Assembly: GCA_963732435.1 (NCBI GenBank)
Contig: CAVSZL010000013.1
Location: 129,605-193,604 of the forward strand
Direction: 5' to 3'
DNA: 64,000 nucleotides
Source: an uncultured Bacteroidales bacterium
Lineage (GTDB): Bacteria > Bacteroidota > Bacteroidia > Bacteroidales > VadinHA17
Positions within the stretch are counted from its first letter, which is position 1. Every line of letters starts with the position of its first letter. The notes under the pieces were generated by a model. The model had not been told where the DNA came from. It worked only from the letters and a program-made list of their open reading frames with translations, and did no database searches. Positions 24,273 through 59,199 of the stretch are shown piece by piece. A program made the translations under genes and the position numbers.

Positions 24273-24277
24273 AAAAT

Positions 24278-24598: not shown

Positions 24599-24686
24599 GA
24601 CAAAAGACAAAAGTTGAGAAACGAAGTTTCGAAATCCAGCTTCAGCGGGAACAAAAGACAATAGACAAAATTTAATCTAAACTAAT

Positions 24687-25952: not shown

Positions 25953-25997
25953 TTTTTTATAATGAAATAAATAATAAGTGTGTCGCATAAGACCATT

Positions 25998-26101
25998 TTA
26001 ACCGCAGAGTACGCAAAGAATGCGCAAAGAACACAAAGCTAAAACCCAGTAATTATATCTTTTTGAGCTTTGCAATAATCCTTAGCGACCTTTGCGGTTA
26101 A
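25998..26101. repeat. Imperfect ~100-nt inverted repeat rich in GCAAAG units (REP/MITE-like)
   Basis: Left arm ttaaccgcagagtacgcaaagaatgcgcaaagaacacaaagct. The reverse complement of the right arm reads ttaaccgcaaaggtcgctaaggattattgcaaagct. AT-rich loop between the arms. Confidence 0.6.
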
Positions 26102-26171
26102 TGGATTTTGACTTTTGAAACAGCCTTTGATTTTTTCAGAATTATTTTCTCAAAAATGAACATATTTCAAT

Positions 26172-32875: not shown

Positions 32876-34108
32876 TTATTTTGTCACCGGGGATTTATCT
32901 CCAAATGCCAATAATCTGCCATCTTCAGTAAGAATGTAAAATTTCCCCTCTATAACGGCAGGGGAGCTGCTTATTGGAGTTCCGGCATTAAAACTCCATA
33001 GTTTTTTCCCTGCAGCCAGATCAAGTATTGAAACAGTACCATCCATGCTTGTAAAAAGAACCTTTGATTTTGTTATTACTGCAGAACCAATAATCCGTCC
33101 GTTTGTTCTATACTTCCAGATTAATTTACCATTTCCGGCATTGTAACAGTAAATGAATTTATCTTCGTTACCAATAACAACATAATTATTTCCAACAGCA
33201 GGAACAGCAAGGATAGAACCTGATTGTTCATTCCCCGGAACCTTCCAAACCATCTTTTTTGTTTTTATATTCAATCCAAAGATTGTTCCATCGTAATCGC
33301 CGAAATATGCCATATCACCAGCGAGGGAAGGGGAGGCGGCAATATATACTCCAACATCTACTGTATCTTTCTGATTGCCTGAAAGGGGATCGACTAATCT
33401 TATCATACCATCACACCCACCAAAAACAATTTTACCATCCTGAATTGAGGGTGTTCCGTTTACATAATTTTCTGTTTCAATTTTCCATATCAGCTTACCT
33501 GTCTTTGGATCGACACAGTGCAGAAAATAATCATAGCTGCCCACAACTATACCGGCTTTACTTCCGGATAACCAGACATTTGCAGATCCTGAGATCTGAT
33601 TATCTGTGGTATATGTCCATATAAGTTTACCTGTAACTTTATCAACCGCAATCAGTCTTCCATCATTCAGTCCTACAATAACTTTATTCCCAAATACAAG
33701 TGGAGCTGCTTCAATCATACTTCCCGCATTATATTGCCATTTGATCTTGCCATCGGATGAAACAGCTATCAGGTTGCCGGGATCATTTCCAAAGAAGAGA
33801 GTTCCATCACTTATTACGGGCGATGATTTAGTTTTAGATCCTGTGGATAGGCTCCACAGCAGTTTTGGATCTGATGGGAACTCACGATCGTACCTGCCTG
33901 AAAGATCTGCTTTTCCTCTGAATAGTAACCAGTCCTTGTTTCCTGTTTGGGTATATGCTGATAGAAAGAATAATCCAGATAATAATAGTGTAATATGATA
34001 CCTTTTATGCCATTGGGTAGTTTTGGTACGAAGCATTTGCCGGACCAACCTATAAAAAATAAATCCTTTGTGAAATATGGCCTCTTTATGTTTAAGCAGC
34101 AATAGCAT
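32876..34108 (-). CDS. PQQ-like (BamB-like) beta-propeller repeat protein, exported
   Basis: WLLFRGKADLSGRY entry motif. Repeated G.L.A.D..TGK..W blades (e.g. LIAVDKVTGKLIWTY, LHCVDPKTGKLIWKI). The start may be Met at 34036. Confidence 0.7.
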   Translation of the reverse strand: MLLLLKHKEAIFHKGFIFYRLVRQMLRTKTTQWHKRYHITLLLSGLFFLSAYTQTGNKDWLLFRGKADLSGRYDREFPSDPKLLWSLSTGSKTKSSPVISDGTLFFGNDPGNLIAVSSDGKIKWQYNAGSMIEAAPLVFGNKVIVGLNDGRLIAVDKVTGKLIWTYTTDNQISGSANVWLSGSKAGIVVGSYDYFLHCVDPKTGKLIWKIETENYVNGTPSIQDGKIVFGGCDGMIRLVDPLSGNQKDTVDVGVYIAASPSLAGDMAYFGDYDGTIFGLNIKTKKMVWKVPGNEQSGSILAVPAVGNNYVVIGNEDKFIYCYNAGNGKLIWKYRTNGRIIGSAVITKSKVLFTSMDGTVSILDLAAGKKLWSFNAGTPISSSPAVIEGKFYILTEDGRLLAFGDKSPVTK

Positions 34109-34120
34109 GATATTATCTGA

Positions 34121-35209
34121 TTATTTGAATTTACTTAAAGCGCCAGTTGGACAGATTTCAATAACACTATTACTTTTGGTTTTCAGTATGTTATCAAAAT
34201 CTTCGGTAAGTGGTTCTGATATTATGCTGATAAATCCCCTGTTAATAAAACAAAGGGCCGGTTCATCAGTCGAATCTTCACAAAGCCTTACACAGAGTCC
34301 GCATTTTATACACTTGGCATTCTCAAAAATCAGACCGGTTTTGTGATTAATCTTTTTAACAATTGGAGAATTTACCAGTTTTCCCCTTGGATCTTTTATG
34401 GCAAAATCCTTTGAAAGATCTCTCAATCTGCAATCATCGGCAGCACGACAATCGCAGTGCATACAGCTTTGCGCCTCGCATGAAGCAGATTGCGTATCTG
34501 TTATTTCCCTGAACCTGGTTATTTCAACCGGACATTCTTTTAACCATTCCTGTAATTCTGTTGATCCAAGTTTTCCAATCTTAGAAGAAAATGGCCTTGC
34601 TCTCTTTTTTAATTTATCGCCTGTCACTGTGAATACATCTTCTGCAAGCTCTTCAATCGTTTCCTGCTGGGTTTTATTCAGTTTTATCTGTTTTGAAATA
34701 AAAAGTTTCATATTTCTTATTGAGACCGGAATGTCTATTTTTTTACGCCGGCATGCGTTTTCACAATAGGCGGGACAGATGGTACATGCAATTTCAGACG
34801 ATCTGACTTCATAGAGAGTAAGCTGAAATGCTCCTTCAAAATCCCTGGCAGAGAGCAATCTGTTCATCAGAGGAATGTTATATCCGGCTGGACATACAAT
34901 TTTGCATGGTGCCTCACACTCGGCTCTGTGTTCGGATAACAAAAGTTCTAATGCACTACGCCTCAGGGATATTATATCTTCACCTGAAATATCAATATCC
35001 ATTCCTTCCTGAACTAATGCTGAACATGATGGCAGATAATTACCTGTTCTTTTGTCTTTTACCATGCAAACCATGCAGGATGTATAGTGTGGCATTCCTC
35101 TCTTATAACACAAGGTGGGAATACTTAAACCTGCTCCGGTGGCAACATCCAGAATGGTTGCCCCATCAGCAGCTTCATATTCGATAGTATCAATCTTCAG
35201 CTTAATCAT
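34121..35209 (-). CDS. Fe-S protein: N-terminal 2Fe-2S ferredoxin domain, GltD-N/DPD-domain-II-like 2x[4Fe-4S] domain, C-terminal 4Fe-4S motifs
   Basis: MIKLKIDTIEYEA..TLCYKRG..TSCMVCMV..SC (NuoG/HydA-N-like Fer2). ECEAPCKIVCPAGYNIP...CTICPAYCENACRR (Fer4_20-like). CIKCGLCVRLCE. Overlaps the upstream stop by 8 nt. Confidence 0.75.
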   Translation of the reverse strand: MIKLKIDTIEYEAADGATILDVATGAGLSIPTLCYKRGMPHYTSCMVCMVKDKRTGNYLPSCSALVQEGMDIDISGEDIISLRRSALELLLSEHRAECEAPCKIVCPAGYNIPLMNRLLSARDFEGAFQLTLYEVRSSEIACTICPAYCENACRRKKIDIPVSIRNMKLFISKQIKLNKTQQETIEELAEDVFTVTGDKLKKRARPFSSKIGKLGSTELQEWLKECPVEITRFREITDTQSASCEAQSCMHCDCRAADDCRLRDLSKDFAIKDPRGKLVNSPIVKKINHKTGLIFENAKCIKCGLCVRLCEDSTDEPALCFINRGFISIISEPLTEDFDNILKTKSNSVIEICPTGALSKFK

Positions 35210-36329
35210 TGATATTAACAATTTCTATAGCATTTTCAGGACACACAATTCTGCAATTATCACATTTTGTGCATATTGACTGATCAATCTCATGTTTTTC
35301 ATAAGGTATGAATGGAATCGCCTTTACAGGACATTCCTGTGAACATTTAGTGCATCCTGTACAGTTGTCATTAATGTCATACCTGATAAGGTCCCTGCAT
35401 TTATTTGCCCTGCATATCCCCATGGTGTGTTCTTCATACTCCTGCCTGAAATATCTCAGCCCTGTAAGGACTGGATTTGGAGAAGTCTTTCCAAGTCCGC
35501 ATAGACTGCCCTGTTTAACTGATGTACATAATTTTTCAAGCTCTTCAATTTCGAAAAGATCAGCTTCTCCAGTACTTAATCTGGTAAGTATATTAAGCAT
35601 TTGTTTCGTTCCTACCCTGCAAAAAGTACATTTTCCGCATGATTGCTTATGAGTGAATGTCAGAAAGTATTTTGCCATATCAACCATGCAATCTGTATCA
35701 TCAAGGACAATCATTCCTCCCGAGCCCATCATAGCTCCCATATTTGTAAGTTCCTCGTAATCAATAGGAATATCTGCTTCACTTGCAGGAATACATCCCC
35801 CTGAAGGACCTCCTATCTGAACAGCTTTGAATGTTCTTCCCGGGGCAACTCCATCACCTATATCCTCAACAATCTGCCTTATTGTTATCCCCATCGGTAC
35901 TTCAATTAGTCCGCCTTTTGAGATTTTTCCTGCCAGGGCAAAAACTTTTGTCCCCTTGCTTTTTTCGGTTCCAATCGAACAAAAAGCATCGGCACCGTTT
36001 GTTATGATCCATGGAACAAGAGAAAGAGTTTCGACATTATTGACAAGGGTAGGTTGATCTCTGAATCCTTTAACAGCCGGATATGGAGGCCTTATATTGG
36101 GTGTTCCTCTCTTACCCTCCAGAGATGCTATTAATGCTGTTTCTTCACCACAGACAAAGGCCCCGGCTCCCTCAAAAATGCTTATGTTAAACGAAAAGTC
36201 ACTATTACAGACACTTTCACCAAGAATTCCATTCTCATAACATTTTTTTATAGCCTTCCTGCACCCTTGATACAGCAAGAGGGTATTCTGCCCTGATATA
36301 GAAAATTCCTTCATTTGCACCGGTGGCAA
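35202..36329 (-). CDS. NuoF/HydB-like NADH-binding flavoprotein, C-terminal part; segment 2 of a frame-disrupted fusion gene
   Basis: From RKAIKKCYENGILGE onward: FEGAGAFVCGEETALIASLEGKRG, SCGKCTFCRVGT (N3-type cluster) and C-terminal CTGCTKCSQECP / CTKCDNCRIVCP. Residues before about 36254 in this frame are non-homologous. Confidence 0.85.
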   Translation of the reverse strand: MPPVQMKEFSISGQNTLLLYQGCRKAIKKCYENGILGESVCNSDFSFNISIFEGAGAFVCGEETALIASLEGKRGTPNIRPPYPAVKGFRDQPTLVNNVETLSLVPWIITNGADAFCSIGTEKSKGTKVFALAGKISKGGLIEVPMGITIRQIVEDIGDGVAPGRTFKAVQIGGPSGGCIPASEADIPIDYEELTNMGAMMGSGGMIVLDDTDCMVDMAKYFLTFTHKQSCGKCTFCRVGTKQMLNILTRLSTGEADLFEIEELEKLCTSVKQGSLCGLGKTSPNPVLTGLRYFRQEYEEHTMGICRANKCRDLIRYDINDNCTGCTKCSQECPVKAIPFIPYEKHEIDQSICTKCDNCRIVCPENAIEIVNIND

Positions 36330-37623
36330 AGGCAGCTATAATCATTCCTTCAATTACCCTGTAAGGAAATGATTCAAGAATCATCCTGTCCATAAAGGCA
36401 CCGGGATCTCCTTCATCTCCATTACATACAACATACTTTCGATCACCTTTGGTCATCTGCGATATTGTCCATTTCTTTCCTGTCAAAAAACCGGCACCAC
36501 CTCTTCCTCTGAGTCCGCTCTCTGTTATTATATTAATTATTGTTTCCTGGTCGATGGAGTTAATAGATTTTCTAAGAGCTTCAAATCCTCCGGTCAGGAT
36601 ATAATCATCAAAAGAATCAGGCGATAATGTGCCACTGTTAAGTGTTGAAATATGAACCTGGTAGTTAAGAAAACTATTAAGGTATTTTTCTCTGAGCTCT
36701 ACAGGAAGATTTATCTGACTCGCGATTTTGTCTTCTGACAGAAAAGTATCTACAATATCGTTTATTCTATGTTTAAATTTCTTATTTAATGTTCTGGGCT
36801 TTATATGCTTAAGTAATATCTCCTCAACCTGTTGTTTAATAACATTTGTATATCTTGAATTCTCATTTCCGGTGTTTACAATCTCCATTAAGGGAGTCTG
36901 ATTACATACACCAACACAACCAACCGACTTTAATCTTATGTTAAGATTATACTTCTCTTTTACATTTAGAATCTCATTCAGTATTTCTTTACTTCCTCCG
37001 GCAACACAGCATGAACCTAATCCTACCCTGACTTCAGCATCAAAATCTTCAATTATTTCTTCCGAAACTGATTTCAGGTCTTTGCTGCCCGAATTCAGAA
37101 AGTCTGCGATAATATGATCTGCCTCGGTAGGCTTTACATGTCCATAGGTCTTGTCATCAATCTGTACAACAGGAGCAAGTGTACAGCAACCCAGACAGGC
37201 AACTTCTTCGATTGAAAAAAGATTATCAGGGGATGCATTTAATGTATCATCAATATGAAGAACTCTCTTAAATGCATCTGAAATCAATGGTGCCCCTTTC
37301 ACATGACAGGCTGTCCCGGAACAAATCTTCACAATATGCTTGCCAACAGGAAGATGACGGAACTGGGAGTAAAATGTAGAGACACCGGAGATCTGACCTG
37401 GAGTTATATCTGTAACTGTGCAGATATATTTCAAAGCTTCAGATGGTAAATAATTTAATTGTTTCTGCACCTCCTGAAGTATTTCAATTACCTTATCCTT
37501 TCCTCTTCCTGTTTTAGCTATTACCTTATCAACAACTGAAGTGATATCAGTATGTAAAGTTTGCATACAGTCGCACTCTCTGGTAACAATATTACTTTCT
37601 TCTGTCTTCAATTTGAAATGCAA
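36235..37623 (-). CDS. NuoE-like 2Fe-2S + HndB-like thioredoxin-fold ferredoxin + N-terminal half of NuoF; segment 1 of the fusion gene
   Basis: KICSGTACHVKG..ACLGCCTLAPVVQID (NuoE). GLGSCCVAGG..SVGCVGVCNQTPLMEI (HndB-like). GLRGRGGAGFLTGKKW..VVCNGDEGDPGAFMDR..YIRAEYPLAV (NuoF). Overlaps the upstream gene end by 16 nt. Confidence 0.85.
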   Translation of the reverse strand: MHFKLKTEESNIVTRECDCMQTLHTDITSVVDKVIAKTGRGKDKVIEILQEVQKQLNYLPSEALKYICTVTDITPGQISGVSTFYSQFRHLPVGKHIVKICSGTACHVKGAPLISDAFKRVLHIDDTLNASPDNLFSIEEVACLGCCTLAPVVQIDDKTYGHVKPTEADHIIADFLNSGSKDLKSVSEEIIEDFDAEVRVGLGSCCVAGGSKEILNEILNVKEKYNLNIRLKSVGCVGVCNQTPLMEIVNTGNENSRYTNVIKQQVEEILLKHIKPRTLNKKFKHRINDIVDTFLSEDKIASQINLPVELREKYLNSFLNYQVHISTLNSGTLSPDSFDDYILTGGFEALRKSINSIDQETIINIITESGLRGRGGAGFLTGKKWTISQMTKGDRKYVVCNGDEGDPGAFMDRMILESFPYRVIEGMIIAAFATGANEGIFYIRAEYPLAVSRVQEGYKKML

Positions 37624-39299
37624 TAAAGGTTTTTCTTTCCTCTTATATAAATCTTCTTATCTGAAAAAGCTGGTGTACAGTCGGCTCTTTCGCCAAGCGG
37701 CGATTCTGAAATAAGTTTATATTCAGGTCCGGCACTAATAATATGCATTACCCCGCTTCTGTCAATAAGGTAAAGCATTTCATCAGCTATAATTGGGGAT
37801 GCATAGAACTGATCCATGAAATAATGAGTCCAGAGGGTATCTCCCTTTTCTGCGTTATAGCAGGCAAGATCTCCGTTTCCTGTAGCTACAAATAGATACT
37901 CATCAGTTGCAACAGGGCTGGAAACGTCAGGTGTAAAGGTATTATCTTCCCATACGATTGAAGCAGCTGCTCCGGGTCTGATTGCAGCCAGTTTTGCATA
38001 ATCAGTTACAGCATAAGTCATTGTACTGTTTACAGCAACCGATGGTGCTACATCACCACTCATACATTCCACACTCCATAACTCGCTTCCTGAATTTATA
38101 TCGTAACTTGTTACGTGCGGATTTCCATTTATTATTAATTGCGGTTTGCCTCCAAAGAAGGCAAGTACCGGTGAAGACCAGACAGGCCGGCCTTTTCGTA
38201 TAGTTTCCCATTTAAGTTCACCGGTTTCAGCTTCAATGCCCATAAGTGAAATTTTTTCATTGCTGTCGAACTGCAACATTAAAAGGTCTTCATAAATTAT
38301 AAGAGATGAGGAATATCCGTAGATATTCTCCGGTAATCCTATATTTTTCGACCAGAGGAGTTTTCCGTCATGATCAAACCCAACCAGGTTCCCATTTGCA
38401 AAAACTGCACATACAACTTTTTCATTCACAGCAACCGTGGAAGTAGCAAGGCCTGCATCCTGATCCATTTCCGGCAACACTTCAGGTTCTCCCTGAATAC
38501 CAGAAGCTGACCCGGTCCATAATATTTCACCTGTTTTTTTATCAATACAATATACTTCACACACGTTTTCACTGGCTCCTGTCAGATATATATTATCTTC
38601 CCATATAACCGGAGAGCTCTGTCCGGATTTTGGTATTTCAATCTTCCATTCAATATTCTTTCCCTCTTCGCCATTCCATTCTGTTGAGTAGCCTGATCCT
38701 CCGGCAATTCCATGACTATTCTGTCCTCTGAAAGAGGGAAAATTTGTCTTATCCGGTTTTGGAGTTGTAACGCTGCCCTGTTCATTTTCCTGTTTATTTG
38801 CAGATGAAAGCCCGGATGGATCGGGCAGGTTGTTCCTCATTATAAATGAAGCTGTTAGAGCCACAACAAAAATGACAGATGCCGTTGCCAATAGATATTT
38901 TCTGTTTCTGTCTTTTATATGAATTTCATCAGGTTTTGAATCGGACAGAAGGGGAGAGGGTTTTTCATTACCTGATATAATTCTCTGACATAAAATAAAT
39001 ACAACTGCACCTGCGAGAAGAAGATAAGCACCACTTTCAACCTGCCGTCTTGAATTAAAGTATGCTTTTCGGGCTACCAGATCCATCGCTCTTACCTGTT
39101 CTGCCTTTATTTTATTCTCAGGATCCTTGTCGAACTGTTCTTTGACCGAGAGTAATGCCGGATTGTCAAGGGGATTGAGAGTTTTAAGCTGAACAAGGCT
39201 GAAGATCATCGTCAGTGCTATAATAAGAGTGAATCCTCCAGAGATCTGGCTTACTATTTTAAGGATACTGATATCTTTGTCGGTAATGTTAAGCTTCAT
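37608..39299 (-). CDS. Membrane-anchored PQQ-like beta-propeller protein (about 3 N-terminal TM helices)
   Basis: Hydrophobic segments FTLIIALTMIFSLV, AYLLLAGAVVFILCQ and LLATASVIFVVALTASFIM. Then the FPSFRGQNSHGIAG entry motif and propeller blades (CIDKKTGEILWT, GIEAETGELKWE, DINSGSELWS). Confidence 0.7.
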   Translation of the reverse strand: MKLNITDKDISILKIVSQISGGFTLIIALTMIFSLVQLKTLNPLDNPALLSVKEQFDKDPENKIKAEQVRAMDLVARKAYFNSRRQVESGAYLLLAGAVVFILCQRIISGNEKPSPLLSDSKPDEIHIKDRNRKYLLATASVIFVVALTASFIMRNNLPDPSGLSSANKQENEQGSVTTPKPDKTNFPSFRGQNSHGIAGGSGYSTEWNGEEGKNIEWKIEIPKSGQSSPVIWEDNIYLTGASENVCEVYCIDKKTGEILWTGSASGIQGEPEVLPEMDQDAGLATSTVAVNEKVVCAVFANGNLVGFDHDGKLLWSKNIGLPENIYGYSSSLIIYEDLLMLQFDSNEKISLMGIEAETGELKWETIRKGRPVWSSPVLAFFGGKPQLIINGNPHVTSYDINSGSELWSVECMSGDVAPSVAVNSTMTYAVTDYAKLAAIRPGAAASIVWEDNTFTPDVSSPVATDEYLFVATGNGDLACYNAEKGDTLWTHYFMDQFYASPIIADEMLYLIDRSGVMHIISAGPEYKLISESPLGERADCTPAFSDKKIYIRGKKNLYCISN

Positions 39300-39300
39300 T

Positions 39301-40578
39301 TTAACTCACTGCTTTAATTGGACAATATTTAAAACACCTCCCACAACTAAAACACTTTCCCTGGTCAGGTTTATATTCAGTCCTTCTTTTAGTTATGGTT
39401 AGGGATACTAATCCTATTCCAAGAGAGATTCCAAGAAATATGCCAGCCAGCGGGGATGCTTTTCTAAAACGATTGATTATAGCCTCTTCTTCAATAAACA
39501 GATCTTCATCTGTCTGACCAGTTTCCTTGAATGCTAAAACTGTTCTTGACAGTGATTCAATTCCGGATTCTTTTTCAAATCTGATATCTCTTGCCAGTCT
39601 GACAGTCCGGTTTGCTCCCGATAACACAGGAGCCAGATTATAAAAGATTAAACCACCTGCAGCTGCAAAAGCCGGAATAAACAAAATATATAGTAAGAAC
39701 CTTCTTCTTAATTTCTCCTGATCTTCCTGTTTCTTATCAATATTGGAAGGGATTATCGCATCATATGGACATGAATTCTCACACAATCTGCAATTAGTAC
39801 ATTCAGCCGGAGTTATCGTAAGATGCTTTCCTGCAAACCTTGAAAAAAGATTGAGAAGAACACCATAGGGGCATAAAAACCTGCAATAAGGCCTGCTGAC
39901 AAATATTCCTGCAAGTAACAGAAGTATCCCAAAAATTATCATTGTATATGGTGCATCAAGTCTGAATATTCCTACAAAAGGATCGTATCTGCAAATTAAA
40001 AACTGACTTTCAGTTGCTGAAAAAAGCACAGCCAGTGCCAGATAGACAAAAGGAACTGAAGTCAGAAATATTTCGACGGCTTTGGAAAGTTTAACCGGCG
40101 AAAAACCTGTAAGCTCTTGTATAGCACCTAACGGACAAACTCCTGCACAGAATACTCTTCCAAATGCCAGGGCAAATATCAGGGGTATTAAGAAAAACAA
40201 AAGGGCTGTTAAAGGAATCGTGTAGGATTCATTGAATAATGCAAGTGAGACATTCTGTACAGAGCCAACAGCACATATGCATCCTTCCCTGTAAAATCCA
40301 AAATATGCGAGTGAAAAAAGAGACATCAATAATAAACCTTTCCTTGAACGTTTCTTCAAAGCAAGCCATGTTGTAACACTCAGAGCAATAATTAAAAGAG
40401 TAACATCCAGGTATTCCCATACCGATGCTCTTTGCAATGGCATCTGATGTTCAGGATAAGAATACTCAGTCTCAAACTCCGGTCGCGGGAATCTGTCCTG
40501 CCCAATTAAATCAGCATGCAAGCTTAATAATAATATGAGTAATATATATGGAGCAATCTTCTTCATTAAGTATGTCAT
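39301..40578 (-). CDS. NapH/MauN/NosR-C-like integral-membrane polyferredoxin
   Basis: Multiple TM helices with CX3CP motifs (FCAGVCPLGAIQE, YCRFLCPYGVLLN), cytoplasmic CTNCRLCENSCP and C-terminal CFSCGRCFKYCP. Stop is 1 nt from the next start. Confidence 0.75.
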   Translation of the reverse strand: MTYLMKKIAPYILLILLLSLHADLIGQDRFPRPEFETEYSYPEHQMPLQRASVWEYLDVTLLIIALSVTTWLALKKRSRKGLLLMSLFSLAYFGFYREGCICAVGSVQNVSLALFNESYTIPLTALLFFLIPLIFALAFGRVFCAGVCPLGAIQELTGFSPVKLSKAVEIFLTSVPFVYLALAVLFSATESQFLICRYDPFVGIFRLDAPYTMIIFGILLLLAGIFVSRPYCRFLCPYGVLLNLFSRFAGKHLTITPAECTNCRLCENSCPYDAIIPSNIDKKQEDQEKLRRRFLLYILFIPAFAAAGGLIFYNLAPVLSGANRTVRLARDIRFEKESGIESLSRTVLAFKETGQTDEDLFIEEEAIINRFRKASPLAGIFLGISLGIGLVSLTITKRRTEYKPDQGKCFSCGRCFKYCPIKAVS

Positions 40579-40652
40579 TATTCATTTAGCTTGTTAACTG
40601 TTATGCCTCAAACACTCTAATATGCATCGTCATTGCGAGCGTAGCGAAGCAA

Positions 40653-41222
40653 TCACATTTTCCCTTTATCTTTCTCAATGTATGAAAACCCGACAGGTAC
40701 TCTGCTGATTGCATGTGACGGACAAGTTCTGGCTATTGCACACTCATTACAGTTTACACACAGGTCGTGCTTTATCTGCATATAAAGTGATCCGTTTCCG
40801 AAATCAGCACATCCTTTAACGCATTTTGCACATCCGTCACAAAGATTCTCGTCAATTGTATATTCAAAATAGGGTTCTTCAACATACTTGCGGACAATAG
40901 CCCCTGTAGGACAAAGCTGAGCTTCAGCACCGGTGCTTATTGTTTTAACACCCTGCCGCAGATAACCTCCGCATAAATCACAATATCCACACATTCTGTA
41001 AGCATGTACGCACTTTGATGCAGAAGGGGTAAGGACACAATTAGTTTTGCACTGCCCACATGTTGTACACTTAAAAGGATCAATCTGCCATACATATCCT
41101 GATCCGGAGGTTTTCTTTGAGAGGGCAACCGGAATTATTACCAGAGGAACAGCAACAATGAATTTTCCTGCCCGTCTGACAAAATCCCGTCTTGTCTGAT
41201 ATTTATTTTTTTCACTTCCCAT
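40653..41222 (-). CDS. Tat-exported 4x[4Fe-4S] ferredoxin, NapG-like
   Basis: Twin-arginine signal QTRRDFVRRAG. Cluster motifs CTTCGQCKTNC, MCGYCDLCGG..LCPTGA, CDGCAKCVKGC and CVNCNECAIARTCP. ATG at 41222 preferred over the TTG at 41237. Confidence 0.8.
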   Translation of the reverse strand: MGSEKNKYQTRRDFVRRAGKFIVAVPLVIIPVALSKKTSGSGYVWQIDPFKCTTCGQCKTNCVLTPSASKCVHAYRMCGYCDLCGGYLRQGVKTISTGAEAQLCPTGAIVRKYVEEPYFEYTIDENLCDGCAKCVKGCADFGNGSLYMQIKHDLCVNCNECAIARTCPSHAISRVPVGFSYIEKDKGKM

Positions 41223-41233
41223 AACTTGATCTA

Positions 41234-41398
41234 TCAATACTTATTGCAGTCTGTTTCACCATTACAAATGCCCTTACCCGGACACTTTGAGCATGCACTT
41301 CCTGATACAATGCGACTTCCCAAAGCCATAGCAATAAGAACCAGAATTGCAAAGAGTCCAAGCCTGCCCGATTTCTTAAAAAATTCCTCCCTTGTCAT
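41234..41398 (-). CDS. Small (54 aa) membrane/secreted Cys-rich protein, not in the ORF track
   Basis: My translation: MTREEFFKKSGRLGLFAILVLIAMALGSRIVSGSACSKCPGKGICNGETDCNKY. ATG start. Same strand as the array. Ends 11 nt before the ferredoxin start. Confidence 0.5.
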   Translation of the reverse strand: MTREEFFKKSGRLGLFAILVLIAMALGSRIVSGSACSKCPGKGICNGETDCNKY

Positions 41399-41457
41399 AG
41401 TGTTTCACTTTTTTACAATTATGAAAACTTACAAATATACCTTAAGCAGATCAAATC

Positions 41458-42682
41458 TCAATTCTGAGTAACCCCGACATCGTAAACCATTAATGAGTTA
41501 CCATGTCTTACATAGAGTCTTTTATTTTTCAATACCAGATGAGCCCAATGTGGGTTTGATCCGTATGGTACTGTAAATGTACTTATTATATTGAACCTGT
41601 CAGCCTGGGGTTCTATCAGTAAAATCTTTCCTGATTCAGTGTATATATATAATAATCCGTCATTAGCAATAATATTTGCAGGAGCAGCATTTCCAATGGA
41701 GAAGAGCTCTTTACCTGTTTTCATGTCGAGACAGAATAGCCTGCGGTTTCTGTCCCCGGTTCCATATATCCTTCCATTCAGAATTACTGCACCGCTGTTA
41801 ATATTGTCAATTAATGTAGAACCCCATAGTTGTTTTACTGCATTTCCATTCATCTCCAGTTTCAGCATTAAACCACCACTTCCACTTTCAGAAAAGCAAA
41901 ACAGATGACCATCAGAATAAACCGGAGAATTCGGATGCACGTTATATGTATTTTCATGCTTAAACTTCCAGAGCAAAATACCTGATTCAGCATTAAAGCC
42001 ACAAACGGATTTTTCCATTAAGGTGACAAGAATTTTTTTGTCTGCAGTCTTAATAATGATTGGAGAACAGTATGCAGATTCTTCATCAATGCCTTTGCTT
42101 TTCCAGATTAATTTACCTGAGTTTCTGTCCAGAGCTACAGTGCTTGTTTCTACACCACCGGGAGAACAATAGAGAACATTGCCATCAAATGCAAGATTCT
42201 CCGTCATGCCCCATGTAATACTTCTGGCTCCATATTCCTTTACCAGATCGACTGACCATATTACCTGACCATTTGTGGCCGACATACAGACAAGTTTCCC
42301 GAAAGAACTCATCAGATATAACTTCCCGTCGATAATCAGAGGGTGTGGATCTTGTTCCTTCATAATTTCTTTCCCATTCCTGTCCATATTCTTTCTTCCA
42401 TAATAACTTTCCGTTAATGTCGAAAGCAAAGACAGAACCGATCCCATTGATCATCCCTGTAGTATAAACTCCGTTTTGTGTAACCGAAGCGGAAGTATGG
42501 CCATCTCCAAGGTCATCAAAATGCCATAAAAGTTTTGGTCCGTTATCGGGCCATTTCTTCAATAACCCCTTTTCGTTATATACGCCATTACGATCAGGCC
42601 CCCTCCATTGAGCTACCTCCTGGGCTTTAGTAACTGGCACAAAAAGTGATGAAACTAAAAAAATGTTTAATAGTATTCTCAT
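41458..42682 (-). pseudogene. PQQ-like beta-propeller paralog, frame disrupted near 42340-42343
   Basis: ORF 42185-42682 is homologous up to ..NYEGTRSTP. ORF 41458-42447 resumes at PLIIDGKLYLMSSFGKLVCM. The paralogs read GTRSTPLIIKDKLF, so removing one nt restores the frame. Confidence 0.75.
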
Positions 42683-42744
42683 AACTACTATTGAGTCGGT
42701 AATTAACTTTCTCTTAAAAAAGGGTAACCATATCTGTAATGATT

Positions 42745-43959: not shown

Positions 43960-44001
43960 AATTGTAATTTTAAATATTAATATACATTTTACATGGACAT
44001 T

Positions 44002-45222
44002 TTAATTAACTGTTAAATCATAAACCATCAGAGAATTTCCGTGTCTTACATATAATCTCTTATTCTTTATTACCAGATGAGCCCAATGTTGTGCAGTTCC
44101 AAATGGAACTTTAAATGAGCTGATAATATTAAAACTGTCAGCCTTTGGTTCCACGAGATTTACAGTACCTCTTTCACTGTATACGTATAGTAATCCATCA
44201 TTTGCAATTATATTGGATGGAGCGAGCTGGTTTATTGAATATAATTCCTTACCACTATTCCAGTCAATACAGAGTAATTTTCTCGTATTATCCCCTGCAC
44301 CAAAAATCTTTGAATCAAATGCCACTACACCGCCCATTCTTGGATCAAGGGATTTATTCCGCCAGAGTTCCGTTACTGAACTTCCATCTTCTGATAGTTT
44401 CAGCATAACACCACCTTGTCCATAACCACTTGTACAGTATAGGTTTCCATTAATAAAGACAGGAACATTGGGATGTACTGAATATTGATTTGGCTGTGGA
44501 TGTTTCCAAAGGAACTTTCCGGTGGTGGCATCAATACCCTGAATAGAATTCTCCATCATAGCCACAATGATTTTGCGCTTTGATAATGAGATAAGTAACG
44601 GAGTACCATAAGCAGACTTTTCTCCGTTTCCCTTGCTTTTCCACAGTAATTTACCAGTATTAAGGTCCAATGCAATTACATTTGCTTCAATTCCCCCCGG
44701 GCAACAATAAAGTGTGTTTCCATCAAACAGCAGATTTTCAGTCACACCCCATTCAATATTCCTTCCGTCATATTGTTTCTGCAGCTCTGTACTCCAGATA
44801 ACTGCTCCGTTCGTTACATTCATGCAGACGAGCTTCCCGAATGAACTCATAACAAAAAGCTTATCTTTAATTATCAATGGAGTGGATCTTGTTCCATCCC
44901 AGTTTGTACCCCATTCCTTTCCATATTCTTTCTTCCAGAGGAGTTTACCTTCACTGTTAAAAGAAAAAACATAGCCGGTGCCGTTTAACATACCTGTTGT
45001 AAAAATACCAGCATTGGTAATGGCAGCTGATGAATGTCCGTCTCCTAACTCATTGAAATGCCAGAGTAATTTAGGTCCGGTTTCAGGCCATTTCCTGAGT
45101 AATCCGCTCTCACTATAAATACCATTTCTGTTTGGTCCCCTCCATTGTGAAATATCCTGTGAATTGATTTCAATAAAAATCACCAAAAATGTCAGTAACA
45201 ATAATAATCTATTCATATTCAA
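44002..45222 (-). CDS. Secreted PQQ-like beta-propeller protein, paralog
   Basis: Signal peptide, then ISQWRGPNRNGIYSESGLLRKWPETGPKLLWHF. Same conserved blades and C-terminal HWAHLVIKNKRLYVRHGNSLMVYD. Confidence 0.75.
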   Translation of the reverse strand: MNMNRLLLLLTFLVIFIEINSQDISQWRGPNRNGIYSESGLLRKWPETGPKLLWHFNELGDGHSSAAITNAGIFTTGMLNGTGYVFSFNSEGKLLWKKEYGKEWGTNWDGTRSTPLIIKDKLFVMSSFGKLVCMNVTNGAVIWSTELQKQYDGRNIEWGVTENLLFDGNTLYCCPGGIEANVIALDLNTGKLLWKSKGNGEKSAYGTPLLISLSKRKIIVAMMENSIQGIDATTGKFLWKHPQPNQYSVHPNVPVFINGNLYCTSGYGQGGVMLKLSEDGSSVTELWRNKSLDPRMGGVVAFDSKIFGAGDNTRKLLCIDWNSGKELYSINQLAPSNIIANDGLLYVYSERGTVNLVEPKADSFNIISSFKVPFGTAQHWAHLVIKNKRLYVRHGNSLMVYDLTVN

Positions 45223-45345
45223 TTGTTTTCATTTATCAAATATTTACTAAATAAGTTTCAGAATTATGTCTCTTTTTTTTATCAACTCATCGAAATCGTT
45301 GGCATAACTTAGCTTCATTTAGGTTTAAGTACAATCACAGGAATT

Positions 45346-46275
45346 CTATTTCCTTTTAAAAATATATAGTTTTGAATCATCTGAATTAGCTGCATAAATT
45401 GCTTTACCATCAGGAGATGCAAGATCAAGTGGTATAGAAGCCATAAATTTATTTTTTGAGGAGACATATTCCACAAATTTTCCTGATTTATCGAGAATCT
45501 TGATTCTGTTAATACCTTTCTCGGCGGTAACAAATCCTTCCGGTATAACAATGAAATGGGCAGGATTGCAACATCCGCAAAATGCTTCAGGAGATGTCCC
45601 GGGTTCTCCAAAAAAGGTCAGTGTCTTTCCGTCATTATCTCTGTGTTCTACCCTTCTGTGCCCTGTATTACCAACAAAAAAAGAGTTGTCTTCGTTGATT
45701 GCAACATCAAAATAGGGGCTGGGAACAATAAACTGACCATCATTGTGTCCAACCATTTTTTTAACCTCACCTCCCTTATCCAGAATGTAAATTGTTTTGT
45801 TTCCTGCATCTGCAAAAGCTACGTATCTGTTGTTCGAGGAAACAGAAGTTATAATGCTATTGGTTTCAAAAGGCCCCCATTCGTTTATTATCTCTCCATC
45901 GTTATCCATTAAAAATATCTGTTCTGCAGTTGATGCAAATAAAGTATCTCTGTGGTAAGAGAGAGAGGTAACAGGTGATGACATCTTTTTGTTCCATATA
46001 AGATTTAACTCTTTATCAAAGCAGGACACAAAGGAATCTCCGGCCAGATAAATATTACTCTCCTGGGAAACTGTAACTGCTTTAAGTGTTCCCTCAGTCA
46101 CTTTAAATTCCCTCGTAATCTCCCACAAATCCCCTGGTCCCTGGCTTTCTGTAACACTTATTACATCCTGAGTGGAATCTACGGTCTGAATTGAATCATA
46201 GATCATATAACCAATAAAGACAAGTATTATCAAAACTGAAAAAAGTGCTGCAATATTCTTTTTCATGTTATTCAA
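45346..46275 (-). CDS. Membrane-anchored NHL-like six-bladed beta-propeller protein
   Basis: N-terminal TM IAALFSVLIILVFIGYMIY. Repeats of the type IYLAGDSFV, IFLMDNDGE, IYILDKGGE, FFVGNTGHRRVEH and IKILDKSGK. Motif FCGCCNPAHF. Confidence 0.6.
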   Translation of the reverse strand: MNNMKKNIAALFSVLIILVFIGYMIYDSIQTVDSTQDVISVTESQGPGDLWEITREFKVTEGTLKAVTVSQESNIYLAGDSFVSCFDKELNLIWNKKMSSPVTSLSYHRDTLFASTAEQIFLMDNDGEIINEWGPFETNSIITSVSSNNRYVAFADAGNKTIYILDKGGEVKKMVGHNDGQFIVPSPYFDVAINEDNSFFVGNTGHRRVEHRDNDGKTLTFFGEPGTSPEAFCGCCNPAHFIVIPEGFVTAEKGINRIKILDKSGKFVEYVSSKNKFMASIPLDLASPDGKAIYAANSDDSKLYIFKRK

Positions 46276-46379
46276 ATTTTGATTTATGTAGTAGCCTTAC
46301 CTGTATGATTCATTAGATGTATACATTTTAATAATATATCTTCTTTCTGGGTTCATTTAGTTACAATTACCTTCTGTTT

Positions 46380-47840
46380 TTATTGACCAATATCCAGGCA
46401 TAACATATTTCTTGCATCCCTGAGAATTAGACATTTTCCGGCAATTGCCATTGGTCCCCAAGCCTCTATTCCATCAATAATTTTATGTGCTGTAATAAGT
46501 GATGCGCCATTGCTCTTTATTTCAAACAAGTACAACATACAATCATCGTCCAGGAGGTACATTTTATCGCCACTCACAATATATGGTCCCAGACCTCTGC
46601 CAAACCTGTTCTCCTTGCCGCTTGACCAAACTGGGGTCAGAAGATCAGATTTATGAAAACAGGCAAGCTGCTTTTTAAGAGGACCTGCGTTTTCTGGCAT
46701 TACACTCCAGATGTAATCTCCAATAGAAACAGGAGTTTGCTGATCGCTTGCGATTCCGTTTGTTCCTTTGTGCTGTTCCTTAACAACGGCTGAATAGACA
46801 GAACCATCATAAGTGATTTCAATCCTGGCTGCCCCTGCACCATAACTTCCAAACACTGCAATCTCATTATTTCCAAGCGGGACAGGAGAAGCTGCCGTAG
46901 TTGCCGGACTCCAGTCAGTAGTTGTCCAGAGAAGTTTTCCTGCATCTTCCTTTTCAGCGGAAACACCACAGACACCGCCAACGGCATTATACACATACAT
47001 TTTTTTCCCGTGAATTGTCATCGGAATAATCGATCCATGAGACATTCTCAGGGAATCGGGGTTAGGAGTAGTCCAGATAACTTTGCCTGAGGAACAATCA
47101 ACTCCGATCATAAGAGCTTTAACGCCTGGTGCAATAACTGCTACATCATCATCTATTAACGGACATTGTCCTGAGAAGAAATCTGGTGTTATTCTTCCGG
47201 TTTCTCTACCGGGTATACCATATTCTCTCTCGAGATCGATTGACCACAGCAGGTTGCCATTGAGAGGATCAGTACACATAACATGGGAGCGAGGACCAAT
47301 TGTTACTATATACTTGTCGGTTACGGCAGGAATAGTCCTGGAATATCCGTGGTTCCTCTTTAGTTCAACATAATACCACCTGCGCCATAATTCTTTACCG
47401 GAGGAGAGTGAAAAGCATCTCAGAACATCGGCTTTTCGTCGTTCGTTATAATCAAGAATGTAAACCCTGCCATTATGGACAACCGGACCAGAATACCCCT
47501 CGCCAAGGGTTACACTCCACAATACGGGTGGACCCGCAGTATCCCATGTTTCAGCTAAAGGAATTGTGTCTTTGCTGATATTGTCAAAATCAGCACCCCT
47601 GAATCTGGGCCAGCTGCCAGGAATTACATCATCAATTTCCGCAATCGTATCAAAGAACTCACCAATTATGACTGAATCAGTTCTTATAACCATTTTGGGC
47701 CTGTTATCCATTCCGGGGATTCTTTCAGATACATTGAAAGAATTATCCCTAAACAACCAGTAAATTAGAGTTATCAAAAAGACTGCTATAACAGCCCCTG
47801 TAATCAGAACTTTTCTATTTATAAAATTCAACATTAGCAA
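46380..47840 (-). CDS. Membrane-anchored PQQ-like beta-propeller protein
   Basis: N-terminal TM VLITGAVIAVFLITLIYWLF. WPRFRGADFDN entry motif. Blades such as CFSLSSGKELWR, CTDPLNGNLLWS and GVDCSSGKVIWT. Confidence 0.7.
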   Translation of the reverse strand: MLMLNFINRKVLITGAVIAVFLITLIYWLFRDNSFNVSERIPGMDNRPKMVIRTDSVIIGEFFDTIAEIDDVIPGSWPRFRGADFDNISKDTIPLAETWDTAGPPVLWSVTLGEGYSGPVVHNGRVYILDYNERRKADVLRCFSLSSGKELWRRWYYVELKRNHGYSRTIPAVTDKYIVTIGPRSHVMCTDPLNGNLLWSIDLEREYGIPGRETGRITPDFFSGQCPLIDDDVAVIAPGVKALMIGVDCSSGKVIWTTPNPDSLRMSHGSIIPMTIHGKKMYVYNAVGGVCGVSAEKEDAGKLLWTTTDWSPATTAASPVPLGNNEIAVFGSYGAGAARIEITYDGSVYSAVVKEQHKGTNGIASDQQTPVSIGDYIWSVMPENAGPLKKQLACFHKSDLLTPVWSSGKENRFGRGLGPYIVSGDKMYLLDDDCMLYLFEIKSNGASLITAHKIIDGIEAWGPMAIAGKCLILRDARNMLCLDIGQ

Positions 47841-47890
47841 TATAAAACAATTTCTGGTTGGAGCTCTGAGTGCTCTTCTCTGTGCATTTT

Positions 47891-49144
47891 TTACTTAACT
47901 GAATATACAGCAAGGTATTCGCCATGCCTTATAAATAATCTTCCTTTATCAATTACAGGATGTGACCAGTATGGACCAGATCCTTTTGAGACCACAAATT
48001 CGCTAATAACTTCCAGCTTTTTATTACCTGGCTTTACCAGACCTACATGTCCGGATTTTTCTTCAAATATATATAACATTCCATCAGCCGAAATTACAGA
48101 TCCTTTATTATACCATTCTTCAATCCACAAAGTTTTTCCAGTAGTCCAGTCAACACAAATCCATTTTCCAAATGAAGTTGTTTCAAATGTTGAAGCATAA
48201 ATGTTATTCCCGAGAAGCACCATACCACCAACATGTGGATCTATATCGGAATTCTTCCAGACAAGCTGGGGTACAGAGTCGTCTGGTGACAATTTCAACA
48301 TAACAGATGTATGGCCATATCCGCTGGCAACAAACAAAAATCCATCACGAAAAACCGGAGTAGTTGTATGATTTTTTCTTATTCCTGAGTCAGAATTTTC
48401 AGCACCGTAATTATATTTCCATATTAATCTGCCTGAAGTTGCATCAACAGCAAAAATATAGTCGACAGACAAAGTTATAATCATTTTTTTCCCTCCATAT
48501 TCGATAAGTAAAGGATTTACATAACCGGTAGGATTATTTAAAGGTGAAGTTTCCCATACCACATCGCCATTTTTTACATTATATGCTACCATTGCAGCTT
48601 TGTTACCGCCAGGAGTACCAATAACAATATTATCAACAACCAAAGGTGATTCGGAGATTCCAAACCGTGGATGAACTCCCTCATATTTTTGATAATAATT
48701 AACTGACCACAGGGTTTTTCCTTCCTTGCTGACACTTACCATATCACCATGTCCACTTACCAGAAATATTCTTCCGAATGAGACAGTTGGTGTACACCGT
48801 GAATCAGGGTAATTACTGTTTGAGGATTTGCCATAAGGTACTTCCCATTTCTTCTTTCCATCCTGTGAAAAAGCAGTAAGAACATCCATGTCACCTTTTC
48901 TTCCTGTTATATAGATATCATCACTGGTAACTGTAACACTTGAGAAACCCGTACCAGCCTCATGTGATTCCCACAAAAGGGAAGGCCCTCCAGAAGGCCA
49001 GCTTTTTAAAAGTCCTGATTCGTTGTATATACCTGATCGGTCAGTATTGCGCCATCCATAGATTATCTGAGAAATTACAATATCCCCTGAAATAAAAAGC
49101 AATGAGATGATCAAGAAAAATATTCTGATTCCAATGGCTTTCAT
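47891..49144 (-). CDS. Secreted PQQ-like beta-propeller protein, divergent paralog
   Basis: Signal MKAIGIRIFFLIISLLFISG. YGWRNTDRSGIYNESGLLKSWPSGGPSLLW. C-terminal YWSHPVIDKGRLFIRHGEYLAVY parallels the other paralogs. ATG at 49144 preferred over 49180. Confidence 0.7.
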   Translation of the reverse strand: MKAIGIRIFFLIISLLFISGDIVISQIIYGWRNTDRSGIYNESGLLKSWPSGGPSLLWESHEAGTGFSSVTVTSDDIYITGRKGDMDVLTAFSQDGKKKWEVPYGKSSNSNYPDSRCTPTVSFGRIFLVSGHGDMVSVSKEGKTLWSVNYYQKYEGVHPRFGISESPLVVDNIVIGTPGGNKAAMVAYNVKNGDVVWETSPLNNPTGYVNPLLIEYGGKKMIITLSVDYIFAVDATSGRLIWKYNYGAENSDSGIRKNHTTTPVFRDGFLFVASGYGHTSVMLKLSPDDSVPQLVWKNSDIDPHVGGMVLLGNNIYASTFETTSFGKWICVDWTTGKTLWIEEWYNKGSVISADGMLYIFEEKSGHVGLVKPGNKKLEVISEFVVSKGSGPYWSHPVIDKGRLFIRHGEYLAVYSVK

Positions 49145-49541
49145 ATTGATATAAATTAAAAACGCAATATAAATAAACATCCATTAATTAGTTGATGAAA
49201 ATGATAATTAGCTCCTCGGGTTTAATCATTATTAAGATTTTTTAACATCCTTTATCTCCATTTATCTTTCATCTGATGTCATAATAAAATTATGCTGGCC
49301 GTTTACGGAGTCTTTTTTCCGGTTTTAAAATAATTACTGTTTCATTTATGTATTTTAATATTTTATATGATAATTAGTTATTTAATAATATTTATTCATC
49401 TATAATCCATATTTACTTAAATATATTACGTATTTTGTTTATTTTAATTTCATATTGAATTGTTATTAATAATATTTTATTATTTTTGTTGCCATATTTT
49501 TAAATGATTTCAGATTATAGTAATTTATAAAAGAATAGTCT

Positions 49542-52842: not shown

Positions 52843-52897
52843 TATTAGAATATTTCTTATTTTCCTGTTAAAAATTGGTCAAAACTTAAAAGACTTT

Positions 52898-54442: not shown

Positions 54443-54443
54443 G

Positions 54444-55943: not shown

Positions 55944-55944
55944 A

Positions 55945-57417: not shown

Positions 57418-57444
57418 ATATGCAATAAAGTAATATTAACTTTT

Positions 57445-59118: not shown

Positions 59119-59199
59119 CGGATAATATTTCTTACTTTAAACTAAATGATTTTTTTTTCGTTGCCATCTGACAGGATTATATCATTGAAGAAAAAAACA

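Follow-up and report, generated by a model that had tools for sequence, protein, structure and literature searches.

A conserved heme-free operon of uncultured Bacteroidales places PQQ_2-type propeller genes beside a NapH-like electron-transfer module

Introduction

The closest described relatives of the system studied here are the NapGH, NosGH and NapH-like modules (such as Wolinella NapGH and the PceA-linked Qdh of Sulfurospirillum), in which a Fer4_5 membrane polyferredoxin is paired with a poly-[4Fe-4S] ferredoxin exported by twin-arginine translocation (Tat), with periplasmic proteins encoded alongside. NapGH-like modules serve different periplasmic enzymes (PMC4585668). The NapH-like systems are modular, include the propeller enzymes NirS and ExaA, and carry, in the cases described, FMN-binding domains or ApbE (PMC8238504). 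We analysed a stretch of 64,000 nucleotides (hereafter the window) from an uncultured Bacteroidales bacterium (assembly GCA_963732435.1, contig CAVSZL010000013.1, positions 129,605 to 193,604), in which an earlier note, made from the letters alone, had pointed to eight beta-propeller genes bracketing a Fe-S module. The operon that we describe from its minus strand pairs a polyferredoxin with a Tat ferredoxin like the modules above, which are also reused with periplasmic propeller enzymes (NirS, ExaA and NosZ). Among extracytosolic electron-transfer systems it fits best in the NapH-like class, as an apparently new variant; we found no description of it in the literature. Unlike NapGH-type systems, it has no FMN-binding domain, ApbE, cytochrome or known terminal reductase, and its module shares the operon with an NADH arm of the type found in HydABC/NfnABC/Fdh-type (Bfu) complexes, which suggests a cytoplasmic donor rather than quinol. 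Its NapH-like protein also differs from NapH in having two extra transmembrane segments between the Fe-S motifs.

Four other systems share parts of this layout. The clusters for N2O reductase (nos) encode a periplasmic propeller enzyme, NosR/NosH, the Tat ferredoxin NosG and an ATP-binding cassette (ABC) machine. Unlike them, the cluster of the window has no cupredoxin, NosD or NosL family by Pfam among its proteins, and its ABC transporter is of FtsX/MacB type rather than NosFY type. A NosZ-like metal centre was considered for the propellers and rejected on conservation profiles read by eye, in which there is no conserved histidine cluster; in the sequences themselves, many of the propeller cysteines fall at a repeated blade position. 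BamB (YfgL), the lipoprotein of the BAM complex, has the same compact 8-bladed PQQ_2 fold of about 350-390 residues, and homologues of the window propellers are named 'BamB' in source annotations. Unlike BamB, the window propellers (14-16% identity) lack a lipobox, have a conserved WPxFRG cap and a conserved top face, and are encoded with Fe-S proteins instead of BAM genes.

Tetrathionate hydrolase of Acidithiobacillus (6l8a/7cqy) is likewise an extracytoplasmic 8-bladed propeller of the PQQ family that is free of pyrroloquinoline quinone (PQQ); we take it to be dimeric, with D325 of 6l8a as its catalytic Asp. Its likeness to the window propellers is one of fold and weak sequence similarity only (Foldseek TM-score 0.55-0.69; sequence E 3e-5 to 2.5e-13), at 14-18% identity, in other organisms and another gene context, and nothing in the window indicates sulfur oxidation. 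The Bfu complexes match the NuoEF protein of the window, which corresponds to a fusion of HydC and HydB including the C-terminal 2x[4Fe-4S] part (E = 1e-115 to 1e-139). Unlike them, the operon has no hydrogenase, formate dehydrogenase or NADPH domain, and the NapH-like protein, with its partners in the periplasm, appears to stand in for the catalytic part of a Bfu complex.

Results

A fixed gene order in uncultured Bacteroidales

We scanned GTDB, one genome per species, with the NapH-like protein of the window (NapH425) as query. At least 539 stretches matched, and the best 80 were analysed; all 80 come from metagenome-assembled genomes of uncultured Bacteroidales, which were sampled in fens, peat, lake sediment, soil and digesters. 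Per-gene counts were made on the loci with enough flank, 61 on each side, whose open reading frames (ORFs) were classified against the window proteins. In the window itself, eight propeller ORFs, seven PQQ_2-type and one NHL-type, lie on the minus strand at 32876-49180, where the earlier note had placed them. They belong to an unbroken row of co-directional minus-strand genes running from 49180 to 27532 in the ORF list; asnB starts at 49542 and is divergent from it. The genes are given here in window coordinates from the 5' end, with the fraction of loci that have them.

P429, 47891..49180, minus strand: predicted secreted PQQ_2-type 8-bladed propeller; cap GWRNTDRSGIY; PF13360 99.5 bits; ortholog (at least 50% identity) in 30/61 loci, more distant P429-like gene in 23/61
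P486tm, 46380..47840, minus strand: core propeller with one predicted N-terminal transmembrane helix (residues 11-29); cap SWPRFRGADFDN; PF13360 61 bits; 60/61 loci, extra P486-like gene in 12/61
NHL309, 45346..46275, minus strand: NHL-type propeller with predicted N-terminal transmembrane anchor (residues 8-26) and CGCCNPxH motif; 55/61 loci
P406, 44002..45222, minus strand: accessory, predicted secreted propeller, tandem paralog 1; QWRGPNRNGIY; PF13360 81 bits
P404, 42745..43959, minus strand: accessory, predicted secreted propeller, tandem paralog 2; QWRGANRDGIY
P405fs, 41458..42682, minus strand: tandem paralog 3; QWRGPDRNGVY; interrupted by +1 C at 42341-42343
Fdx194, 40653..41237, minus strand: predicted Tat-exported poly-[4Fe-4S] ferredoxin of 194 aa, NapG/NosG-like architecture, Fer4 family matches; 61/61 loci
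NapH425, 39301..40578, minus strand: 425-aa membrane polyferredoxin of the NapH/NosH/NosR (Fer4_5) superfamily; PF12801 62 bits
P563tm, 37608..39299, minus strand: core propeller behind three predicted transmembrane segments; cap FPSFRGQNSHGI; PF13360 119.6 bits; 60/61 loci
NuoEF, 35202..37623, minus strand: NuoE-NuoF fusion (HydC+HydB / Bfu-type NADH-FMN-FeS module), in ORFs 36235-37623 and 35202-36329; 52/61 loci
G366, 34121..35221, minus strand: predicted cytoplasmic Fe-S relay of 366 aa, [2Fe-2S] + Fer4_20 + Nqo3-like by Pfam; 51/61 loci
P410, 32876..34108, minus strand: core, predicted secreted, highly repetitive propeller; cap WLLFRGKADLSG; PF13570 182.8 bits, PF13360 137.6 bits; 59/61 loci
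GT431, 31515..32810, minus strand: cytoplasmic GT4 glycosyltransferase (Pfam GT1/GT4), beyond the coordinates of the earlier note; 60/61 loci
ABC226, 30800-31480, minus strand: ABC ATPase by Pfam, LolD/MacB-like (LolD/DevA/MacB-like NCBIfam matches below cut-off); 59/61 loci
FtsX1088, 27532-30798, minus strand: duplicated FtsX-type permease of 1088 aa with two periplasmic loops (459 and 236 residues), 3' operon end; 60/61 loci

Across the loci the order is invariant: (P429) P486tm, NHL309, Tat ferredoxin, NapH-like protein, P563tm, (NuoEF, G366), P410, GT4, ABC ATPase, FtsX. This is a fixed operon of 12-13 genes in uncultured anaerobic Bacteroidales, and five of the eight propeller genes are in it. 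P486tm is its best-conserved propeller, P429 a semi-conserved 5' member, and the NADH module (NuoEF, G366) an optional part. The conserved unit is larger than first described, since it adds the GT4 enzyme and an ABC transporter of MacB/FtsX type. Across the loci, the NHL protein and four of the PQQ_2 propellers go together with the Fdx194-NapH425 pair. The link of the propellers to the electron-transfer module that had been proposed is real, and it is strongly conserved for P486tm, P563tm, P410 and NHL309. Both reverse look-ups from P486tm homologues (2/2) ended in the same operon; L002 and L085 are syntenic loci. A random distribution of the family with respect to the Fe-S genes, which the earlier note had named as the observation that would speak against the link, is what we see for the three tandem genes (P406, P404 and P405fs) and clearly not for the core propellers. 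A fully covered locus has 3-5 PQQ_2-type propeller genes (mode 4); the window has 7.

At loci without NuoEF and G366 (L060, L062-L064, L067, L068, L071, L073, L074 and L081), P563tm is followed directly by P410, and six such loci have a distant PQQ_2 propeller gene on the opposite strand just after the FtsX gene. The 5' end elsewhere carries an extra MacB-type FtsX and ABC pair (with or without a TolC-like OEP) beside extra propellers, or a LytS/LytTR two-component system (L048:1576-6484, L046:3379-6639, L038:3358-5164, L087:8058-9868); the pairing of propellers with MacB-type genes is recurrent across genomes. Only one locus, L070:9432-13409 (CP070687.1), has the Fdx194-NapH425 pair but no propeller, glycosyltransferase or ABC genes; the next gene there encodes a protein of 749 aa that contains a Peptidase_S74 chaperone domain, which is uninformative. 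The suggestion that the genes might go with sulfatases or polysaccharide utilisation loci did not hold up: sulfatase genes occur in the fetched flanks of 23/82 loci and in 13/29 loci having asnB, too inconsistently to indicate anything beyond local synteny. A search of the whole window against Rfam for a riboswitch or other RNA upstream of the operon gave no match, and a scan for sigma-70 promoters and terminators returned counts equal to the shuffled expectation.

Electron-transfer genes

The ferredoxin Fdx194 has a twin-arginine motif (RRDFV), and all 77 of 77 orthologs carry a Tat motif. Its 17 Cys form four cluster motifs; NapG and MauM models are absent from its NCBIfam matches. NapH425 falls well below the cut-offs of the napH models (TIGR02163, 63.2 bits vs 213; PRK09477, 55.5 vs 234). 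Its architecture consists of a Fer4_5 membrane domain, two CX3CP motifs and two 4Fe-4S motifs, and it is paired with the Tat ferredoxin. The transmembrane and charge profile puts both ferredoxin motifs on lysine/arginine-rich, predicted cytoplasmic loops. NapH425 has more than 6,000 homologues, of which the top 120 are at least 73% identical.

NuoEF contains 2Fe-2S_thioredx, Complex1_51K, NADH_4Fe-4S and 2x Fer4 domains. Its best match is 8oh5_B (E = 6.5e-139), followed by NfnB and HydB, including the bifurcating HydB 8a6t_B (1e-115). G366 matches PDB chains only over residues ~3-186, and these chains (9bov_A, 8oh5_C, 9n5u_A) are 963-1178 aa long; it thus looks like the N-terminal Fe-S region of HydABC/Nfn/Fdh-type catalytic subunits without the catalytic domain. 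Judged by these matches, NuoEF and G366 together would be a Bfu-type NADH/FMN/Fe-S arm from which the catalytic domain is missing. Tight spacing and overlaps make the napH-like gene, P563tm, nuoEF and G366 a translationally coupled block, in which P563tm starts 1 nt after the NapH425 gene and overlaps the start of nuoEF. In none of the 16 cluster proteins did Pfam find an FMN-binding domain or ApbE, and no cluster protein has a CxxCH heme motif.

GT431 has a conserved N-terminal GSGGxFYCGNCxRD motif (CxxC, residues ~8-24) and a PLYLPP motif, neither of which matched a named GT4 subfamily.

Location, fold and conserved surface of the propellers

Sequence features predict that all the propellers lie outside the cytoplasm. 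By hydropathy and charge analysis, P429, P404, P406 and P405fs have a hydrophobic, Sec-signal-like N-terminal segment; in P429 the likely start is the internal Met 13, which gives the signal. P410 has no hydrophobic segment from its first ATG and gains a Sec-signal-like start only from Met 25, so its targeting does depend on the choice of start, as had been noted; its ortholog in L002 has 370 aa. The original tally of four cleavable signals and two transmembrane anchors stands for the four Sec-signal-like starts; it needs amending for the anchors, since NHL309 is predicted to be anchored too and P563tm to have three transmembrane segments. None of the propellers has a lipobox within its first 45 residues, and the other cluster proteins have none either.

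All seven PQQ_2-type propellers reach the gathering score of PF13360 (61-138 bits vs 27.6; P405fs 63.7 bits on its C-terminal ORF), in agreement with their first identification. They stay below the cut-offs of the BamB models (TIGR03300, 23.8-151.9 bits vs 285.2; NF008351, 24-96 vs 423). AlphaFold (AF2) models of P404 and P486tm (predicted local distance difference test scores of 88.6 and 79.4) both have eight four-stranded blades, and for both of them BamB and tetrathionate hydrolase are the best Foldseek matches in the PDB (TM-score 0.5-0.7 on query length, 14-18% identity). For P404 the TM-scores are 0.63-0.67 with BamB and 0.62-0.69 with tetrathionate hydrolase; normalised on BamB length, the BamB matches reach 0.63-0.78, at probability 1.00. 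The structure comparison that had been proposed returned a BamB-like 8-bladed fold. As modelled, the propellers have a compact PQQ_2 fold with eight blades, and by score they belong to neither the BamB nor the PQQ-dehydrogenase models. By sequence, P486tm has no match in the PDB, and P410 matches the archaeal protein 3hxj (E = 2.5e-32) and Cake designs.

In P486tm, conservation is highest on one face of the ring. Among 69 orthologs of P486tm, the residues conserved in at least 95% of sequences make up 39% of the top-face loops (the D-A/B-C loops, from the strand order of the model), 26% of the strands and 23% of the bottom loops, and the conserved polar set includes K161, R162, H164, R168, Q225, C226, N260, D262, H268, R412 and W461. 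The P404 family follows a similar trend. This conservation favours a specific ligand or partner site on the top face over a passive scaffold.

The eighth propeller, NHL309, was correctly assigned: in phmmer it matches the solved NHL domain 6d69 (E = 1e-11) and the NHL domains of TRIM71/TRIM2 (about 1e-6); the Pfam NHL model gave no match at E <= 0.01. Its CGCC..H motif (FCGCCNPAHF at about residues 231-240) is at least 97% conserved in 59 orthologs. CGCCNPxH is a possible metal or redox-active thiol site, the only such candidate among the extracytoplasmic proteins.

The N-terminal cap

The earlier note had grouped seven of the propellers by a shared (W/F)RG-x4-G entry motif. All seven strings that it quoted are present, but the strict pattern [WF]RG-x4-G fits only four of them (P406, P404, the third paralog and P563tm): P429 has WRN, where its orthologs carry WRG, P486tm ends in N, and P410 has an x5 spacer. 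What is common to all seven is a longer N-terminal cap, (W/Y)Px(F/W)RG...WPxxGPxLLW, which each family keeps in its ortholog alignment (P486tm SWPRFRGADFDN...WDTSGPPVVW, P563tm YPFFRGQDSRG...NIKW, P410 EWPLFRGKSDLSG...PSLLW, P429 YGWRGPGRSGIYNETGLLKSWPSSGPSLLW). Across the 19,537 residues of the window ORFs that have at least 200 aa, the strict motif turns up 4 times, always in these propellers, and a loose version 8 times, 7 of them here. The motif is not due to chance and reflects shared ancestry.

It is not specific to the cluster, however. A HMMER scan with P404 against 1.84 billion cluster representatives (50% identity clusters) retrieved 23,359 clusters at a threshold of E <= 1e-3, of which 1,344 also pass E <= 1e-30, and [WFY]R[GN]-x4-G is present in 100/150 of the best representatives, typically as (D)WPQ(F/W)RGPxRDG...ETGLLKxWPxxGPKLLW, which makes the cap a hallmark of the family. 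The propellers belong to a branch of the PQQ_2 superfamily that is very large, uncharacterised and routinely misnamed. In the P404 model the cap (residues 21-48) precedes a strand (49-54) that the DSSP order would assign as the fourth strand of the last blade, closing the ring. The cap is also the most conserved segment between the tandem paralogs (57-75% among them, 61% to P429).

The three tandem genes

P406, P404 and P405fs had been described as close tandem paralogs with identical C-terminal tails and several conserved Cys positions. The tail HWAHLV.K.K.LYVRHG.SLMVYD is indeed common to the three. They are not close: pairwise identity is 58-65% (33-38% between them and P429), the proportion of synonymous differences (pS) is 0.73-0.77, synonymous divergence (dS) is saturated or undefined, and the nonsynonymous divergence (dN) of 0.26-0.32 is the only meaningful value. 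Their identity and their saturated synonymous divergence make them, to all appearances, old duplicates. Nor are the Cys positions invariant, as P406 and P429 lack several; the LVCM/LFCM and FCID cysteines fall at the repeated blade position x-C-x-D-x2-(T/S)G-x3-W in the sequences read by eye. The idea of substrate diversification finds no sign among the three, because their top face is no more diverged than their strands (54% vs 56% of positions identical in all three). P429 does differ on its top face (32% vs 42%).

These genes lie outside the conserved unit, although they had been tied to the Fe-S module. They are accessory, anciently diverged members of the superfamily in a variable slot of the operon, where a P404-type gene is found at only 3/61 loci. 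Six look-ups of P404 homologues (68-77% identical) placed two in the operon (L002, L085) and four alone, without Fe-S genes nearby (L001, L083, L084 and L086, 71-77% identity). Two of the four stand between M1 and M16 peptidase genes and the others by M16, or near M28 and M55, a recurrence that hints at a subfamily function unrelated to the Fe-S operon. Specific cases are L084:6232-12177, between M1 and M16; L086:6150-9215, after M1; and L001:8258-14130, before M16 and adjoining PmbA/TldD. In a distance tree P404 of the window groups with the stand-alone clade, P406 with a gene of the operon at L010 (73% identity), and the third paralog stands on its own.

It is therefore possible, if short of probable, that the three genes, and perhaps P429, are independent of the Fe-S module, being ordinary periplasmic members of a huge propeller family that in this lineage were inserted in a permissive slot of the operon. 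Their rarity at this slot, the stand-alone homologues by peptidase genes, the place of P404 in the tree and the gap of 220 bp between the array and the ferredoxin gene are all in keeping with this. Against it, the family also has a clade inside the operon (L002, L085, L012, L010), the genes are co-directional with gaps of 42-123 bp, and they have the N-terminal cap and the fold in common with the core propellers. Such independence would be compatible with an electron-transfer role of the core propellers, discussed below.

Frameshifts in the contig

The third paralog is not the intact ORF of about 405 aa that had been listed at 41458. An additional C in the CCC run at 42341-42343 breaks it into two overlapping ORFs, 42185-42682 with 165 aa and 41458-42447 with 329 aa, and deleting one C restores a protein of 407 aa. 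Likewise, a 1-nt indel that falls between 36244 and 36260 interrupts nuoEF (a frame change in tblastn), its ortholog in L002 being a single ORF of 804 aa, and asnB carries a 1-nt indel at 50878-50892, near the A5 run at 50888-50892, where the ortholog is a single ORF of 554 aa. That about 16 kb hold three 1-nt indels, all close to short base runs, and that one of these affects the housekeeping gene asnB, argues for assembly error over gene decay. The split of the third paralog is probably such an error, and we rejected a pseudogene as the default reading, nuoEF and asnB having like indels. The pattern suggests assembly indel errors throughout this contig. The L087 contig, from the ENA sample of L001 and L002, is fragmented in the same way.

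Surroundings of the operon

Elsewhere in the window, Pfam identifies glycoside hydrolases, proteins of rhamnose catabolism, eight sulfatases and one glycyl-radical enzyme, which fits an anaerobic polysaccharide degrader as host. A rhamnose set (GH78 rhamnosidase, RhaT, RhaA and an FGGY kinase, 19527-27515) lies directly downstream of the FtsX gene and convergent with it. At 59146-62335, within a row of sulfatase genes (51412-59118 and 62405-63967), a glycyl-radical enzyme of 786 aa resembling pyruvate formate-lyase is followed by an overlapping ORF of 289 aa that may be its activase. This arrangement fits a strictly anaerobic lifestyle and may relate to the breakdown of sulfated or deoxy sugars.

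Discussion

The conserved gene order brings together extracytoplasmic propellers, a Tat ferredoxin and a NapH-like polyferredoxin. We give about an even chance to the proposal that the propellers are the extracytoplasmic parts of a conserved, heme-free envelope redox operon, acting as cofactor-less partners in electron transfer. Under this proposal, NapH425 would exchange electrons with cytoplasmic NADH, possibly together with ferredoxin, or with the quinone pool where NuoEF is absent; NapH425 would transfer them to periplasmic Fdx194; and Fdx194 would exchange them with a substrate that the tethered P486tm, P563tm and NHL309 and the soluble P410 and P429 bind or convert on their conserved top faces. 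The proposal allows electron flow in either direction. The cofactor-less propellers could act as substrate-binding or catalytic partners, for which tetrathionate hydrolase, of the same fold, offers a comparison, and the MacB-type ABC transporter and the GT4 enzyme might assemble or export a component or product. More tentatively, and on balance doubtfully, the Bfu-type arm may dock on the NapH-like polyferredoxin, the whole forming a heme-free, possibly quinone-independent trans-envelope machine in which the Tat ferredoxin would supply cofactor-less, membrane-tethered propeller enzymes of PQQ fold and NHL type.

Several points weigh against an electron-transfer role of the propellers. We know of no mechanism for the passage of electrons across the membrane in NapH-type proteins, and no redox cofactor site was identified in the propellers, the CGCCNPxH motif of NHL309 being the sole candidate. 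NuoEF and G366 are missing in about 15% of loci, which indicates that NADH input is dispensable. Among the closest folds is that of BamB, a scaffold without catalytic activity. The conserved GT4 enzyme and MacB-type ABC transporter fit no evident step of electron transfer and could instead be a sign of envelope assembly. All the evidence is computational and comes from uncultured organisms, and the literature yielded no expression or biochemical data.

Some of these points lead to a different account, which we consider unlikely: that the propellers are non-catalytic, BamB-like scaffolds or adaptors of an export machine made of the GT4 enzyme and the MacB/FtsX-type transporter, for instance for a glycolipid or surface component, and that the Fe-S module energises, regulates or redox-gates it. 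BamB is the best structural match in Foldseek, at TM-scores of 0.63-0.75 on target length, the propellers are without an identified cofactor site, the GT4, ABC and FtsX genes are conserved like the Fe-S pair (59-60/61 loci), and extra MacB-type FtsX, ABC and OEP genes adjoin extra propellers in other loci. A dedicated Tat ferredoxin, a NapH-like protein and a Bfu-type NADH arm nevertheless argue that redox reactions take place in the periplasm; in P486tm the most conserved part, the loops of the top face, has many Arg, His, Asp and Gln residues, which is more typical of a ligand site than of BamB; and the propellers score far below the BamB cut-offs and have no lipobox.

It is very improbable that the propellers are true dehydrogenases with PQQ or another quinone cofactor, using scavenged PQQ and passing electrons inward through the ferredoxin and NapH-like pair in the manner of the ExaA-containing NapH-like clusters described in Proteobacteria (PMC8238504). 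Those clusters, and weak matches to PF01011 and to the PQQ-dehydrogenase model TIGR03075, speak for it. Against it, the PF01011 matches align only about 40-100 of 595 positions, those to TIGR03075 reach 18.6-77.6 bits vs a cut-off of 480 over part of the profile, the mature proteins have about 380 aa vs 530 positions in that model and lack the long insertions of quinoproteins of ~570-600 aa, PQQ alcohol dehydrogenase (7wmd) comes at about rank 49 in Foldseek (TM-score 0.46-0.50), a Pfam scan of those flanking window ORFs that have at least 200 aa yields no pqq-type family, and the glycyl-radical enzyme is consistent with an anaerobic lifestyle. The doubt that the earlier note had cast on quinoprotein chemistry, with neither pqq genes nor heme motifs at hand, was thus well placed.

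The operon would give a first functional context to part of a 'BamB/PQQ-like' family of more than 23,000 clusters that annotation pipelines now misname. This would be useful even if the propellers were scaffolds, and annotation as BamB or quinoprotein would then be inappropriate. With a NapH-like protein encoded together with a Tat ferredoxin and its own NADH/FMN/Fe-S arm, the operon is a natural test case for the transmembrane electron route of NapH/NosR-type proteins and for the role of their cytoplasmic Fe-S clusters. The habitats of these bacteria (peat, fen, lake sediment, soil and digesters) are ones in which the way fermenters dispose of electrons affects carbon turnover. If the trans-envelope machine exists, the operon would show on genetic grounds that NapH-type proteins can take electrons from donors in the cytoplasm through the membrane, and in hundreds of species of uncultured, fermentative Bacteroidales the machine would serve as a sink or source of electrons in the periplasm.

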